A stretch of DNA of 64,000 bases, taken from contig JBALXL010000001.1 in the NCBI GenBank assembly GCA_036960805.1, positions 129,028-193,027 on the forward strand, given 5' to 3'. The stretch's first letter is position 1; each line of letters begins with the position of its first letter. The notes under the pieces were generated by a model. The model worked only from the letters and a program-made list of their open reading frames with translations. It made no database searches and had not been told where the DNA came from. Shown here one piece after another: positions 20,483 through 24,892 of the stretch. The DNA is from Pseudomonadales bacterium. Lineage in GTDB: Bacteria > Pseudomonadota > Gammaproteobacteria > Pseudomonadales > IMCC2047. The position numbers and the translations under genes were made by a program.

Positions 20483-21913
20483 ATGTTGTGGCGTCCTCGC
20501 TCCATTCTGCAATTAATGCTGTTTGGTCTTATTACCGTGGTCGCGCCCCTGTGTGTGGCCATTTTTTATACGGTCCAAACTCTGGATGAGTTAGCGCGCC
20601 AGAATCAGTCGGTCAACCAACAAACCATCTCCCTTACCCGTAGTAGTCAAGTGTTTGAATCGAGTTTGCTCGATCTGGAACGACGTGCAGGGCAATATGT
20701 CGCCTTGGGCGATAACGATCTATTGGATTTATTTGTGCATGAGCGTGAGCAGCTGTTGATCACGTTGCGCCAGATTGAGTCGACTTTAGTTGGTGTCCAG
20801 AGTGATGCTGGCAGTTCAATGCGGAGCACCCAGCAGCAGCTGTACGATACGTTGCAGAGTGTGCCTGATTCAGGAGCTGACCTAGCTAAGGCGCTGTCGT
20901 CGTTTGAGCAGTTAGCGGATGGCTCGGCGGCATTTCGGGACCTGGTGCAGAGCTATGTAGATCAGCAACTAGACGAGCTAGGTATGCACGCCGAAGATAT
21001 CCAGCAATCATTGATGCTGATGGTGGCACTGTTAGCGGTACTGACCTTTGCCTTTTCGTTGCTGCTGATTTACTGGATTAATACACCGATCAAACAACTT
21101 GAACGACAGATCCGGCAGCTGGGTAGAGGGGATATGAGTCAGGAAATTCGTATCTCGGGGCCTTCAGAAATACAACTGCTCGGTACTCAGCTGGAATGGT
21201 TACGTACACGACTAGATGAGCTTGAAAAGGAGAAGTTGCAGTTTCTGCGGCATATGTCTCATGAATTAAAGACACCGTTGGCAAGCTTGAGAGAAGGTGC
21301 TGATTTGTTGGCCGAAGGCGTGGCTGGTGAATTGTTGGGAAAACAGCAGGAAGTTGTTGATATTATTCAGGCCAATAGCCGTGAATTACAGCGGTTGATT
21401 GAAAATTTACTCGATTATAATCAAATGATTCACAGTCAGCATTTACTTCGAGAACCGTTAGCTTTGCAGGACCTGTGGCAGGAATTAATTGCCGCTCATC
21501 AAATGACCATCGAACGTAAAGGTTTGCAGGTGAGTCTGGACGGTGATATCGAGCAATGGCCAGTTGATGAAAAAAAATTCACAGCGGTGCTGGATAATTT
21601 GATGTCCAATGCGGTCAACTATAGCCCTTTACAGGGGCGGATTAATATCCACTGGCGAGTTGAACATGATAACTTAATGATGGAGGTGGCAAACTCCGGT
21701 GAAACCATTTCTGATGTTGACAAAGATAAAATATTCGACCCTTTTTATCAGGGTTCTAACAGCCGCCATGGACCTATTAAAGGGTCTGGCATTGGTTTAA
21801 GTGTGGCTCGTGAATGTATGCAGGCACATGGCGGTAGTTTGTCACTTGTGGAGCACCCCGTTTTGGCCGTGTGCTTTCATTTAGAGTGTCCCGGCTTGGA
21901 GAAAAAACAGTGA
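20483..21913 (+). CDS. glrK: Sensor histidine kinase GlrK/QseE-like (TM-periplasmic-TM-HAMP-HisKA-HATPase)
   Basis: FLRHMSHELKTPLASLREG H-box, NAVNYS, KGSGIGLS; kinase-lipoprotein-NtrC-type regulator order. Confidence 0.85.
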   Translation: MLWRPRSILQLMLFGLITVVAPLCVAIFYTVQTLDELARQNQSVNQQTISLTRSSQVFESSLLDLERRAGQYVALGDNDLLDLFVHEREQLLITLRQIESTLVGVQSDAGSSMRSTQQQLYDTLQSVPDSGADLAKALSSFEQLADGSAAFRDLVQSYVDQQLDELGMHAEDIQQSLMLMVALLAVLTFAFSLLLIYWINTPIKQLERQIRQLGRGDMSQEIRISGPSEIQLLGTQLEWLRTRLDELEKEKLQFLRHMSHELKTPLASLREGADLLAEGVAGELLGKQQEVVDIIQANSRELQRLIENLLDYNQMIHSQHLLREPLALQDLWQELIAAHQMTIERKGLQVSLDGDIEQWPVDEKKFTAVLDNLMSNAVNYSPLQGRINIHWRVEHDNLMMEVANSGETISDVDKDKIFDPFYQGSNSRHGPIKGSGIGLSVARECMQAHGGSLSLVEHPVLAVCFHLECPGLEKKQ

Positions 21914-22422
21914 AACACTTGATGGTGACTTTGGTTTTGTTGGCGTGTGCTGGCTGTGAATCATTGCAACCCAATTATTATGAAGGCTGGAACCGTGAGC
22001 CAACCTTAACAACTGAGCAGCGACATTATTGGCTACGTATTGCCGATTTGTACATGGAGTTAACGCCAACCCAGGCGCAGCAGCGGTTGAATAAAATCGG
22101 TGATGAAGAGAAAACTAGTCTGCAATGGTTTCGTTATGCCTTACTTAATCAGCAGTTAAATGAGCGTGCTGGCTGGATACGTTCTCGTGATGCGTACCGT
22201 CAGCTGCTAGTGACAGAACATTTTGGCAGTGAGTTGCGTGGCTTAACGAAACTGTTGCTTAAGTATAATCAGAATATGATCAATTGGGATGCACGTTACA
22301 ATAAGGTGCAAATCCAGCTTAAGGAAAGTGAAGCAATGCAGCAGGTCTTGGAAGAAAAGATTCAAGCTATTACTAACCTTGAGCAGAGTATAAGTTCCCG
22401 TAAAGAGCAAGTCAGTGAGTAA
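21910..22422 (+). CDS. qseG: Alpha-helical lipoprotein, QseG/YfhG-like accessory protein
   Basis: GTG start overlapping glrK stop; lipobox CAGC; C-terminal KIQAITNLEQSISSR resembles the QseG end. Confidence 0.75.
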   Translation: MKHLMVTLVLLACAGCESLQPNYYEGWNREPTLTTEQRHYWLRIADLYMELTPTQAQQRLNKIGDEEKTSLQWFRYALLNQQLNERAGWIRSRDAYRQLLVTEHFGSELRGLTKLLLKYNQNMINWDARYNKVQIQLKESEAMQQVLEEKIQAITNLEQSISSRKEQVSE

Positions 22423-22427
22423 TAGAC

Positions 22428-23777
22428 ATGGCTGATTCACCCTCCCCCCATATTTTATTGGTCGATGATGATCCGAGCTTAAAGCGTTTGCTGGTCATGC
22501 GTTTGGAAGCCGAGCACTACCGTGTACGAACCGCTAATGATGGGCAGGAAGCGTTACGTGAATTAACCGTACAGGATATTGATCTGGTGATCAGTGATCT
22601 GCGCATGGATGGCATGGACGGCATTGAGTTGTTCGAAGAAATTCAACGGCTGCACCCAGGCATCCCCGTCATTATTATTACTGCTCAGGGATCAATTTCC
22701 GATGCGGTGTCGGCTACCCAGAAAGGGGTCTTTGGTTTTTTGACCAAGCCGGTCGACAAAGTAGAACTGTTTCAGCAAATTGAACAGGCCTTATCACACA
22801 GTAGTCATTCAACAACGAAAGATGACGATGAGCAGTGGTGTTCACAGATACTGACTCGCAGTGAGAGCATGGAACGACTGCTGAAAACTGCTAAGCGAGT
22901 AGCAGAGTCAGATGTTAGTCTATTAATTACCGGAGCCAGCGGTACCGGTAAAGAACTGTTGGCACAAGCGATTCATCGCGGCAGTCCACGTCAGGATCAG
23001 CCCTTTATTCCTATTAATTGTGGTGCATTGCCAGAGCCCTTGCTCGAATCGGAATTATTTGGTCATGTGAAAGGGGCTTTTACCGGCGCCAGCAATGATC
23101 ACCTTGGTCTGTTGCGTGCGGCAGACGGCGGTACACTGTTTCTTGATGAAATTGGTGATATGCCCGTTCCGTTGCAGGTCAAACTGTTACGCGTACTTCA
23201 GGAGCGCCAAGTTAGGCCTGTTGGTAGTACGCAGAGCTACTCCGTTGATGTGCGTATTATTTCTGCGACTCACCGGGATCTCGAGCAAGCCATGCAAACA
23301 GGTCTGTTTCGTGAAGATTTATATTACCGGCTGAACGTGGTTAATTTAAAAATCCCTCCCTTGAGCGAACGCCGTGAAGACATCCCTTTATTAGCTAATT
23401 ATTTTTTACAGCAATGTCAGAAAGGGCGTTACAGCAAGGCAACCGCGTTTAGTCCTGAGGCCATTAATGTGTTGGTGGGGGCTGCTTGGCCGGGGAATGT
23501 GCGACAGCTTGAAAATGCAGTGCAACAAATGGTTGCCTTGGCACACACAAAACTGATTCCTGAGTCGCTTGTTTGTGATGCCATAGAGAGTGAGTCTGGC
23601 GTCATGCCATCGTTTAATGATGCGCGCCACCATTTTGAGCGCGATTATTTGGTGAAGGTGCTGCGCTTAACGGAAGGCAATGTGTCAAGAGCAGCAAAAC
23701 TGGCGCAGCGTAATAGAACTGATTTTTATAAGTTACTACAGCGTCATGAGCTGAAACCGGAGCAGTTTAAAAGTTAA
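22428..23777 (+). CDS. glrR: Sigma-54-dependent response regulator GlrR/QseF
   Basis: Receiver LVDDD / [14 protein letters not shown]; intact GAFTGA; C-terminal [10 protein letters not shown]. Confidence 0.92.
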
Positions 23778-23860
23778 TAGCGCATGCGAAAATATGGAGC
23801 TATGTTTGTTTTTCTTTCAGGTTCATGTAGATGTTTGAAGTTCCAGCGTTTTGGAGCTAT

Positions 23861-24040
23861 TGTCGCTGAATGCCGACACTCTGATTGAGGGCGGAAGTGG
23901 CTGGCAGGAAAGTATTTGCCGCTTTTTATTAGCGGTATAAGGTCTTTCTTATTGAAGTTGTCATCAAAAACAGACGCCGTAAGTTATTGAAATAAGAAGG
24001 ATTTTAAAATAACGCTTATTTTTGTATCCAAAAACAGACG
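23861..24040 (+). promoter_or_regulatory. Three GlrR-type upstream activator boxes plus IHF-like site
   Basis: TGTC-N10-GACA 23861-23878; TGTC-N10-GACG 23959-23976; TGTA-N10-GACG 24023-24040; TAAGTTATTGAAA 23980-23992 (one mismatch to IHF consensus on reverse strand). Confidence 0.75.
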
Positions 24041-24124
24041 CTTATTTGCGTACTTTGCCTGCCGCCATGAACAATCTCCTTGATATTCCCCTTAACCTAA
24101 TGAAATATAAGCTTAAATAATAGT

Positions 24125-24140
24125 TGGCATGAATTTCGCT
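24125..24140 (+). promoter_or_regulatory. Sigma-54 (-24/-12) promoter
   Basis: TGGCATGAATTTCGCT, i.e. GG-N10-GC. Confidence 0.75.
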
Positions 24141-24253
24141 ATAGTTTTGAGCAGTCGCGTTAAAAATGTTGGCGCACCCTATTGAGGCATCTGGTTAAAG
24201 ACTTAATAATGGCTGTTAACACCGGATAGATGTAGTGCCCAGGAGAGAACTAA

Positions 24254-24892
24254 GTGTCCATTACTTTTGAGTTTAGTAAACAGGAAGGTTTACTAAAGCA
24301 ATACTACAAGCTAAGGGAAGAGTGTTTTCGCAATGAATTAGGGCTTGAGGCCTTTGACGGAACTGAGGACTTGTTTGATCAAACAGGGCATATCCTTATA
24401 TTTCGTGATGGCGATATTTGCATTGGTGGTGTACGAATTACCGGCTGTTCCTTATTTGGACGTAGCCTGGTGCCGCTGGAACAAAAAGGGCTGGATATAT
24501 CGCAAATGCTGCCTCAGCTAAGTCTGACATTGGCGCCTTATTGCCAGTGGGAGCGGCTGGTTTTACGTCCGGAGTATCGGGGTATCGATATGCTGAAAGG
24601 GATTTGCAAGGCCTTGATACGAGGCTGTGCCAGCCTGGGTTATCACTACGCTTTTAATGTCACTGGAATCAAGCGTGCTCGGCTTTATAAGCGTGTTCAC
24701 TCAAATCTTGGTTTTGACTACGAAATTTACAATCAACTGGAAATGCCCGTGGAGAATGACTTTTCGCATCTTGAGCATTTGTTGTCGATTGCTCACATTC
24801 CAAAAGCTGAACGTGATGAATTGGTTGGTGCTGATGATGAACAGGTGTTCGCTGGCCTTTGGCAACCCTCTGATGTTTATTGCGCTGCTTAG
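24254..24892 (+). CDS. GNAT-fold acyltransferase, LuxI/FeeM-like
   Basis: AGGAGA RBS plus GTG; YKLREECF, EDLFD, GGVRI, VPLE, WERLVLRPEYRG follow the acyl-HSL / N-acyl amino acid synthase motif order. Confidence 0.65.
   Translation: MSITFEFSKQEGLLKQYYKLREECFRNELGLEAFDGTEDLFDQTGHILIFRDGDICIGGVRITGCSLFGRSLVPLEQKGLDISQMLPQLSLTLAPYCQWERLVLRPEYRGIDMLKGICKALIRGCASLGYHYAFNVTGIKRARLYKRVHSNLGFDYEIYNQLEMPVENDFSHLEHLLSIAHIPKAERDELVGADDEQVFAGLWQPSDVYCAA

Follow-up and report, generated by a model that had tools for sequence, protein, structure and literature searches.

A GlrK-QseG-GlrR module with a probable GlrR-controlled FeeM/LuxI-like acyltransferase gene in an uncultured marine Pseudomonadales bacterium

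We analysed a stretch of 64,000 nucleotides (hereafter the window) on contig JBALXL010000001.1 (C63) of a marine Pseudomonadales bacterium, which is represented by an uncultured metagenome-assembled genome (MAG; 1.87 Mb, 74.6% complete), as are the other genomes that carry the system described here. Within the window, the segment 20483-24892 contains genes for a sensor kinase, a lipoprotein and a sigma-54-dependent activator, followed by an acyltransferase gene (open reading frame (ORF) 24254-24892, hereafter the ORF). Comparisons of sequence, gene order and predicted fold suggest that this segment is likely to be a GlrK-QseG-GlrR (QseEGF-type) module combined with a single local target, an N-acyl amino acid synthase-like enzyme under GlrR and sigma-54; taken by itself, the control of the ORF by GlrR and sigma-54 appears very likely. 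To our knowledge, studies of GlrKR/QseEF have dealt almost exclusively with Enterobacteriaceae, in which the main output of the system is the GlmY/GlmZ-GlmS circuit and the stimulus that it senses is debated. As judged from the genomes compared here, GlrKR loci share, as a conserved unit, a cassette that consists of two or three GlrR boxes, integration host factor (IHF)-like sites and a -24/-12 promoter, and the cargo of this cassette varies by family.

The GlrK-QseG-GlrR trio and the control region

The three regulatory genes are arranged in the order glrK-qseG-glrR, as in E. coli. The best supported member is GlrR/QseF (22428-23777, plus strand), a response regulator and sigma-54 enhancer-binding protein with the receiver, sigma-54 AAA+ and Fis-type helix-turn-helix architecture (Pfam Response_reg, Sigma54_activat, AAA_lid_14 and HTH_8), which is 61% identical to E. 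coli K-12 GlrR over its full length (274/448 residues) and in which the C-terminal DNA-recognition helix is almost unchanged compared with that of E. coli (RNRTEFYKLLSRHEL). Its top NCBIfam model is the GlrR equivalog NF011695 (673.4 bits), with NtrC (424 bits) as the runner-up about 250 bits lower and PEP_resp_reg only fourth among the matching models; by these comparisons it is a GlrR orthologue beyond the curated enterobacterial range and not an equivalog by NCBI's rule. The GlrK/QseE-like sensor histidine kinase (20483-21913, plus strand; HAMP, HisKA and HATPase_c domains) shows 34% identity to E. coli K-12 GlrK across 473 colinear residues (E 8e-76) and is, on this alignment, a GlrK orthologue; no NCBIfam GlrK model was among its matches. 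The middle ORF (21871-22422, plus strand; 183 aa, with an alternative ATG start at 21922) overlaps or abuts glrK, ends 5 nt ahead of glrR and, as read from its translation, begins with a signal peptide carrying the cysteine lipobox LLACAGC. Pairwise BLASTP of this ORF against E. coli QseG gave nothing significant, Pfam PF13942 (YfhG, Lipoprotein_20) was matched below threshold (E 0.02; 15.3 bits, cut-off 27), and hhalign comparison of six of its orthologues with E. coli QseG was of low confidence (probability 28%, E 6e-4, 123 colinear columns), with the motifs YWLR and C-terminal LTxxExxxSxRK common to both. Based on position, lipoprotein nature and weak profile similarity, it is a probable QseG. 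An NCBIfam match of the same protein to NheB (E 0.0035; 16.5 bits, cut-off 500) was rejected as a coiled-coil chance match.

Between glrR and the acyltransferase gene lies a gap of 476 bp (23778-24253) with three GlrR boxes, two IHF-like sites and a sigma-54-type promoter, all oriented toward the ORF. Box 1 (23861-23878, TGTCGCTGAATGCCGACA) has the perfect palindrome ends TGTC-N10-GACA, box 2 (23959-23976, TGTCATCAAAAACAGACG) reads TGTC-N10-GACG, and box 3 (24023-24040, TGTATCCAAAAACAGACG) reads TGTA-N10-GACG; start-to-start steps are 98 bp from box 1 to box 2, 64 bp from box 2 to box 3, and 102 bp from box 3 to the TGGC of the promoter. The IHF-like sites, which are matches to YAANNNNWTGAWW and imperfect relative to the published WATCARXXXXTTR consensus, are located between boxes 2 and 3 (23980-23992, TAAGTTATTGAAA) and just upstream of the promoter (24093-24105, TAACCTAATGAAA; 32 bp before TGGC). 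The -24/-12 promoter (24125-24140, plus strand, TGGCATGAATTTCGCT, GG-N10-GC) reads TGGCATG-AATT-TCGC and is the sole match to TGGCAYGNNNNTYGCW in the window (0.17 expected); a stricter pattern with TT at -14/-13 has no match in the window because the promoter reads TC at these positions. It would be followed by a 5' leader of about 100 nt (24151-24253, plus strand; start site predicted from the -12 element), at the end of which a Shine-Dalgarno sequence, AGGAGA (24241-24246, plus strand), precedes the GTG start of the ORF. Counted across the entire window, matches to the box pattern show no enrichment (7 vs 5.5 +/- 2.4 expected), and three distinct boxes fall within 180 bp of this one intergenic gap. 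When the own assembly was scanned for loose sigma-54-like sites, only one of 229 had at least two boxes within 350 bp upstream, and this one is the -24/-12 site in the gap before the ORF. The gap between der and glrK (20377-20482, 106 bp) holds no box and no -24/-12 site. A terminator-like hairpin with a T tract (23902-23931, plus strand; a 7-pair stem followed by CTTTTTATTA) is situated between boxes 1 and 2 and probably ends the glrK-qseG-glrR transcript; terminators overall were not found above shuffled sequence (3 found vs 2.3 +/- 1.4).

This layout resembles that of the enterobacterial glmY promoter. According to the available part of PMC3045617, the GlrR consensus is TGTCN10GACA, and three such sites together with IHF act at glmY, with the IHF sites flanking ABS3. 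When we measured the glmY promoter on E. coli K-12 DNA, relative positions were 89, 122 and 185 for the box starts and 292 for TGGC, i.e., steps of 33, 63 and 107 bp. The E. coli/Yersinia glmY (glmZ) promoters and the window share the box consensus, the number of sites (three), a -24/-12 promoter and IHF-like sites on either side of box 3, and the distances from box 2 to box 3 (64 bp vs 63 bp) and from box 3 to TGGC (102 bp vs 107 bp) are similar; in addition, the place of the IHF-like site 23980-23992 of the window, between boxes 2 and 3, is taken in E. coli by TAACTCATTGATTTTA. The differences are that the cassette of the window is downstream of glrR whereas that of E. coli is upstream of glrK, that boxes 1 and 2 are 98 bp apart instead of 33 bp, that the cargo is a protein-coding acyltransferase gene instead of a small RNA (sRNA), and that no overlapping sigma-70 promoter stands out in the window. 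An earlier note on this DNA, made from its letters alone, had already described a trio of the GlrK-QseG-GlrR type, a 476-bp gap with three boxes, an IHF-like site and a GG-N10-GC promoter facing the ORF, a der-glrK gap without such a promoter, and an enhancer layout like that of glmY. The trio holds up well for GlrR and GlrK and weakly for QseG, the coordinates of the control elements were confirmed with a second IHF-like site added, and the layout agrees with the K-12 spacing and is kept together with the ORF in other genomes.

In the mechanism that we propose, an envelope signal would be perceived by the kinase GlrK with its lipoprotein partner, and GlrK would phosphorylate GlrR. GlrR would then bind the three TGTC-N10-GACA-type boxes downstream of its own gene, IHF would bend the DNA, and the AAA+ domain of GlrR would open the sigma-54 promoter at 24125-24140. 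The expected transcript would be monocistronic, with about 100 nt of leader ahead of the coding sequence for a GNAT enzyme of 212 aa. This enzyme would most likely use acyl-ACP or acyl-CoA as the fatty acyl donor and acylate an amine, probably that of an amino acid, and the resulting N-acyl amino acid might serve as a membrane-active lipid or a released signal.

Conservation of the cassette and variation of its cargo

Conservation across genomes provides what we consider the decisive support, at the level of sequence comparison, for the boxes and the promoter. Among 61 related genomes (own genome included), homologues of the ORF were found in the own genome and in 6 of the 11 other members of its family (f1); one weak match outside f1 was spurious. 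In all six of these other genomes glrR is directly upstream of the homologue (6/6), and the intergenic regions contain one to three boxes each and, in 5/6 (not in G001), a -24/-12 site, which mostly reads TGGCACGGCTTTCGCA in the orthologous promoters. Spacing is also kept: box 3 begins 102-106 bp and box 2 166-169 bp before TGGC, boxes 2 and 3 are 63-66 bp apart in the relatives, and the distance from TGGC to the start codon is 125-132 nt in 5/6 family loci. A box just past the glrR stop, equivalent to box 1, occurs in G001, G002, G003 and G006, and 4/6 promoter-bearing family loci (L001-L004) have an IHF-like site at -32 from TGGC. In G001 (C15; L007/L009/L010, same genus), a frameshift and in-frame stops interrupt the ORF and the spacing within the -24/-12 element is about 2 bp short, with glrR intact and three good boxes remaining; either the output has decayed recently or the assembly is in error here. 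Within genus g5 of the same family (G007-G011), only G008 has the module; in the other four genomes neither the ORF nor a GlrR orthologue (thresholds E<=1e-100 and 1e-120) was found, and the four genes may thus have been gained or lost as one block. G005, in which glrR is at a contig end, was placed outside the judgement of ORF presence.

The arrangement extends beyond the family. Two Halioglobus MAGs, which belong to another family, have glrK-qseG-glrR followed by an ORF of 30-33% identity, and in both a -24/-12 site is present together with two boxes spaced by 65-66 bp. In metagenomes, 32 loci encode relatives of the ORF, of which 5 with less than 300 bp upstream were left out and 27 were assessable. 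When a cassette was taken to require two or more boxes with no more than 1 mismatch and a -24/-12 site with a score of 9/12 or higher, 14/27 loci have the cassette with glrR directly upstream, 4/27 (L104, L108, L110 and L113) have it with no adjacent glrR, one (L118) has one box and a weak promoter, and 8/27 have none. In the four loci with no adjacent glrR, the homologues are 34-37% identical, two boxes are 65 bp apart, IHF-like strings are present, and the promoter has the variant form TGGCTCG-N4-TTGT, with GT and not GC at -12 (the same -12 occurs in L015 and L109); in L110 the genes upstream of the cassette are on the opposite strand. Since these four loci keep the cassette without glrR, the boxes appear to go with the ORF rather than simply marking where glrR ends. 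Gene order and boxes are thus conserved together in f1, Halioglobus and 14 of the 27 metagenome loci. In a tree of the ORF proteins (mafft and FastTree, rooted on the homologue of genome G442, without support values), the glrR-adjacent state is found in both main clades, and loci with the cassette only or with neither are confined to the Halioglobus-like clade, which is consistent with an ancestral glrR-adjacent arrangement and later separation and loss. We also examined larger samples of the order (401 genomes) and the class (400 genomes). A GlrR orthologue is present in 43/401 genomes of the order (E<=1e-120; 53-65% identity outside f1), and acyltransferase relatives (E<=1e-10) in 9/401, seven of them from f1.

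What accompanies glrKR elsewhere was examined in 16 GlrR loci of other families, each extended by about 5 kb on either side. In six of them the cassette is found beside glrKR; it combines TGGCAC-type promoters and IHF-like strings with two boxes spaced by 63-66 bp. In the remaining ten no cassette was found within about 5 kb. The cassette is located downstream of glrR in f58 (L077, 4301-4945, minus strand), where its cargo is a DUF1328 membrane protein and then a CsbD-like stress protein, and in f54 (L076, 6730-7666), where a gene for a two-BON-domain (OsmY-like) protein is the cargo and a DUF6627 gene comes next. It is upstream of glrK in f10 (L071, 2651-3164; L072, 8360-8855, minus strand) and f50 (L080, 2509-3046), in both cases before a gene for a small secreted EF-hand protein (calcium-binding type), and also in f49 (L067 of G059, ~2360-2960; L066 of G146, ~8560-9400, minus strand), where no convincing ORF was seen in the 370-480 nt that come after it. 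In the f49 cassette, which in L066 was missed by the automatic screen and found by eye, IHF-like sites and a TGGCACG promoter accompany three boxes that are spaced as at E. coli glmY (33 + 65 bp); in the stretch downstream, the two genomes have in common only a strong terminator and about 54 nt at the 3' end (81% identity), and Rfam gave no meaningful match on the f49 loci. By these sequence features the f49 element is a candidate GlrR-dependent sRNA outside Enterobacteriaceae. Most of the other cargoes are envelope or stress proteins, which fits the envelope role known for QseEF (PMC6075780, available part).

Judged from these gene neighbourhoods, the GlrR enhancer-promoter unit is conserved and the acyltransferase is a cargo of it that is specific to this lineage. 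The earlier note had proposed that the module is wired to the acyltransferase instead of glmY. Rfam models detected neither GlmY nor GlmZ, whether in the window or in the own 74.6%-complete genome (Rfam produced no gathering-threshold match in the window at all, and only chance-level matches at E<=10 in 20300-25400), and the cassette of the ORF is conserved, so that this part of the proposal is supported; it is, however, not a unique rewiring, the acyltransferase being one of several cargoes.

The acyltransferase and its putative product

The ORF (24254-24892, plus strand; 212 aa, GTG start) was regarded in the earlier note as a LuxI/FeeM-like acyltransferase, and this assignment is now supported by the Pfam matches of its relatives, by profile comparison, by the predicted fold and by the ESM Atlas. 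The protein of the window itself has no match to Pfam FeeM (PF21926) at E<=10 and no Pfam match to the LuxI-type family Autoind_synth (PF00765). A profile of six orthologues of the ORF searched against 1.84 billion entries retrieved 604 cluster representatives at E<=1e-3, and 105 aligned members of this family were used for the statistics below. Pfam FeeM is matched by 81/105 relatives (E<=0.01; best 3.9e-11), Acetyltransf_5 by 70, Acetyltransf_1 by 30 and Autoind_synth, weakly, by 4; the NCBIfam model TIGR03694 (PEP-CTERM/exosortase-associated acyltransferase) is matched weakly by 54/105 (best E 5e-11), and the NCBIfam OlsB model by 2/105. In a profile search of PDB, the only matches below E 1e-3 were N-acyl homoserine lactone (AHL) synthases (BjaI, E 6e-7); phmmer of the homologue P0026 against PDB gave no match. 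AlphaFold2 on the alignment of 105 sequences yielded a model with a predicted local distance difference test (pLDDT) score of 92.8, superseding a model from 6 sequences (pLDDT 71.7). Foldseek placed LasI second, BjaI fifth and FeeM ninth for this model. In VIA (48,161 chains), FeeM was the top match (Z 15.0, root-mean-square deviation 3.1 A, 169/188 residues), followed by LasI (Z 14.8, 175 residues) and by TofI and RpaI (14.6); FeeM and the AHL synthases gave the longest alignments (167-175 residues, Z 14.6-15.0), and one generic GNAT was within 1 Z of FeeM, as are LasI, TofI and RpaI. Neighbours in the ESM Atlas (features and structure) are FeeM-type and autoinducer-synthase clusters. By this chain of homology and by its modelled fold, the product of the ORF is a GNAT acyltransferase of the FeeM/LuxI branch, without being a member of either Pfam family.

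The ORF also appears to be maintained. Its orthologues are 42-80% identical and keep the N-terminus (SITFEFS), and between members of the genus pN is 0.09-0.145 with pS saturated at 0.71-0.81, from which it is under strong purifying selection. Near-invariant residues of the family are Y17, R21, D42, G59, R61, E76, R101 and R143. Position 98, the column of the beta-4 Glu of BjaI that is conserved in AHL synthases, is Glu in 76/105 and Gln in 20/105 relatives; it is Gln in the window protein and its orthologues and Met in two clades (L006 and Halioglobus), and E100, two residues past Q98, is kept in some orthologues only. Residue 98 may correspond to Glu95 of FeeM, as suggested by a near-colinear superposition. 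In the available part of PMC4897644, the FeeM-like enzymes Nas343 and Nas354 each suffice alone for the production of N-acyltyrosines in E. coli, and the change Glu103Ala in Nas354, at the position corresponding to FeeM Glu95, abolished activity. Like these N-acyl amino acid synthases, of which a single enzyme suffices for the product (PMC4897644, same part), the window protein is a single-domain enzyme of about 200 aa, and FeeM is its best match in VIA; it differs in lying below the Pfam thresholds, in the 7-9% identity of the structural alignments and in having Gln at the position aligned (via BjaI, not FeeM) with the proposed catalytic Glu. Taking the relatives and the modelled fold together, we see about an even chance that the product is an N-acyl amino acid, which is the most likely product, with an aminolipid precursor second and an AHL-type signal less likely.

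At its C-terminus (24830-24892) the protein has a non-conserved tail of low model confidence and then an -AA end. Among the 105 relatives, AA ends occur in 12 and VA ends in 9, mostly within the closest 20. Such ends resemble ssrA-like C-terminal degradation tags, and by this analogy the acyltransferase may be short-lived.

Several points weigh against the interpretation of the segment as a GlrR-controlled N-acyl amino acid synthase-like system. Its support is comparative throughout, i.e., the parts, their conservation, their co-occurrence and the fold were computed. The window GlrR scores below the curated cut-off of NF011695 (673.4 vs 763 bits), box 3 and the -12 region (TCGC, not TTGC) depart from the consensus, and IHF genes (TIGR00987, TIGR00988) were not found in the own 74.6%-complete assembly (IHF-alpha is present in 3/3 relatives tested). 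The 8/27 metagenome loci that lack the cassette encode homologues of 33-37% identity and have neither boxes nor promoter, and the class sample of 400 genomes contributed one further clear relative only, that of G442, with no glrR nearby; these cases together indicate that the ORF family is not always GlrR-linked. The related genomes and contigs, several of them near-duplicates, are not independent samples, and 27 loci do not equal 27 lineages. As to the enzyme, the window protein reaches none of the curated models: Acetyltransf_5 gives E 0.013 (16.6 vs 22.4 bits) and NCBIfam TraI E 0.038 (13.5 bits, cut-off 292). Generic GNATs are close in VIA as well (Z 12-14.9, with shorter alignments of 136-156 residues), and since they score nearly as high, the fold alone cannot fix the substrate; the Gln at position 98 implies that the chemistry of the ORF product may be different.

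Of the other explanations, the best supported is that the enzyme carries out OlsB-like N-acylation of ornithine, glutamine or a similar amino acid and thereby supplies a membrane aminolipid precursor, so that the envelope would be remodelled under stress and no signal would be made. We consider this possible but rather unlikely: Acetyltransf_5, presumably the family of OlsB, matches 70/105 relatives and NCBIfam OlsB 2/105, and the other cassette cargoes (secreted EF-hand, BON, and DUF1328 plus CsbD proteins) are envelope or stress proteins and would fit an envelope-directed output; however, OlsB-type models are rare with these two matches, and the gene is monocistronic, bounded by a convergent yciH, with no OlsA-like O-acyltransferase partner in the unit. 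It is improbable that the product is an AHL or another S-adenosylmethionine-derived quorum signal and the ORF an unrecognised LuxI-type synthase under envelope-stress control. LasI, BjaI, RpaI, TofI, MesI and EsaI are among the top structural matches, the PDB profile matches below E 1e-3 are confined to AHL synthases, and the LuxI family (LasI, BjaI, RpaI and TofI) resembles the window protein in fold, length, Z (14.6-14.8) and, by profile alignment, in the N-terminal Arg/Phe/Asp-x-x-Asp and GG-R motifs, with R21, F25, D39/D42, R61 and R101 aligning with BjaI. Nevertheless, Autoind_synth matches 4/105 relatives vs 81/105 for FeeM, the window protein reaches 13.5 bits vs the TraI cut-off of 292, the top VIA match is FeeM, and neither the aligned Trp of BjaI (in the family profile) nor the aligned Glu is kept; moreover, no LuxR-type Autoind_bind domain (PF03472) was found in the six genomes that carry the ORF (the own one being 74.6% complete), i.e., no LuxR partner is seen there.

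Slightly less probable still is a catalytically altered or inactive GNAT with a binding or regulatory role, which might be suspected from Gln at the proposed catalytic Glu position in the window protein and its orthologues, from Met in L006 and Halioglobus, and from the loss of activity of the Nas354 Glu103 mutant (PMC4897644, available part). The strong purifying selection and the retention of R21, D42, G59, R61, E76, R101 and R143 argue against it, and Gln in 20/105 relatives is thus a mark of a subfamily and not a decay mutation. Finally, it is very improbable that the boxes and the promoter serve a leader sRNA or the autoregulation of glrKR and that the ORF is transcribed from a sigma-70 promoter, because, although the cassette drives an sRNA in Enterobacteriaceae (PMC3045617, available part), one other family (f49) has an apparently non-coding cargo, and two weak sigma-70-like matches exist (24092-24121 and 24182-24210), the count of such matches is within that of shuffles (5 vs 3.2 +/- 1.8), no terminator was detected between promoter and ORF (24140-24254) in the terminator scan, the leader does not fold more stably than shuffled sequences (z 0.32) and has no Rfam match, the leader sequence is not conserved between genera whereas the promoter-to-start distance is, four loci hold the cassette and the ORF without glrR, and promoter and ORF decay jointly in G001.

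Relation to known systems and genomic surroundings

That GlrR drives a protein-coding gene has a precedent, in that rpoE is among the QseF targets in E. coli K-12 and has a sigma-54 promoter (PMC6075780, available part). In both cases GlrR/QseF would activate a protein-coding, envelope-related gene from a sigma-54 promoter; the E. coli target is a sigma factor gene elsewhere on the chromosome, whereas that of the window is an adjacent enzyme gene. GlrK and GlrR homologues beyond Enterobacteriaceae are listed in KEGG-based surveys (PMC8895600, available part). The earlier note knew of no description of the pairing of GlrR with an acyltransferase, and we likewise found none: in the open-access full texts searched, we found neither a GlrR-controlled acyltransferase nor any of the other cargoes described, our literature search revealed no N-acyl amino acid synthase or FeeM reported under GlrR or sigma-54/RpoN control, and among the matches listed for the GlrR literature none deals with a non-enterobacterial target by title or abstract.

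PEP-CTERM systems include a sigma-54-dependent two-component pair, PrsK/PrsR. The acyltransferase of TIGR03694 from these systems resembles the ORF family in being weakly matched by 54/105 relatives; it differs in that the window protein has no match to it, no exosortase context is present, and the regulator here is GlrR. This pair would represent a second case of an NtrC-type regulator beside a FeeM-like enzyme.

The main interest of the finding is in cargo swapping and in the context that it offers for a FeeM-like family. Outside Enterobacteriaceae, GlrKR loci combine this regulator and its boxes, IHF sites and sigma-54 promoter with a range of downstream genes, most of them envelope-related; such loci provide a comparative handle on the stimulus of GlrKR and illustrate how a complete enhancer can be retained while the output is swapped. 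An uncharacterised FeeM-like subfamily with about 600 cluster representatives gains a testable regulatory context, and the acyltransferase case, if true, would tie envelope sensing to the synthesis of N-acylated small molecules. A wider proposal, which we put forward only tentatively, is that GlrKR/QseEGF is a portable envelope-stress module, the enhancer-promoter cassette of which has been kept from Enterobacteriaceae to marine Pseudomonadales (GTDB) while its cargo was exchanged repeatedly (the GlmY sRNA, an unrelated non-coding RNA in f49, EF-hand, BON and DUF1328 plus CsbD proteins, and the FeeM/LuxI-like synthase), and that in the lineage of the window envelope stress would give rise to a diffusible N-acyl amino acid in a short pulse. 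In this proposal, the -AA/-VA tail would act as a degradation tag within a stress-to-lipid-signal circuit that has no LuxR-type receptor.

Upstream of the module are bamB (17717-18871) and der (18973-20376), the latter preceding the kinase gene, both identified from the ORF map and Pfam. The rpoN gene was found on the same contig as the window (C63). Downstream, the unit is bounded by the convergent yciH/SUI1 gene (24889-25242, minus strand; Pfam SUI1, E 6e-20), the stop codon of which overlaps that of the acyltransferase ORF by 4 nt (24889-24892) and leaves no space for a terminator. The yciH neighbour is also found beside the ORF in G001-G004, and the same 4-nt overlap of the stop codons occurs in G002 and G003.

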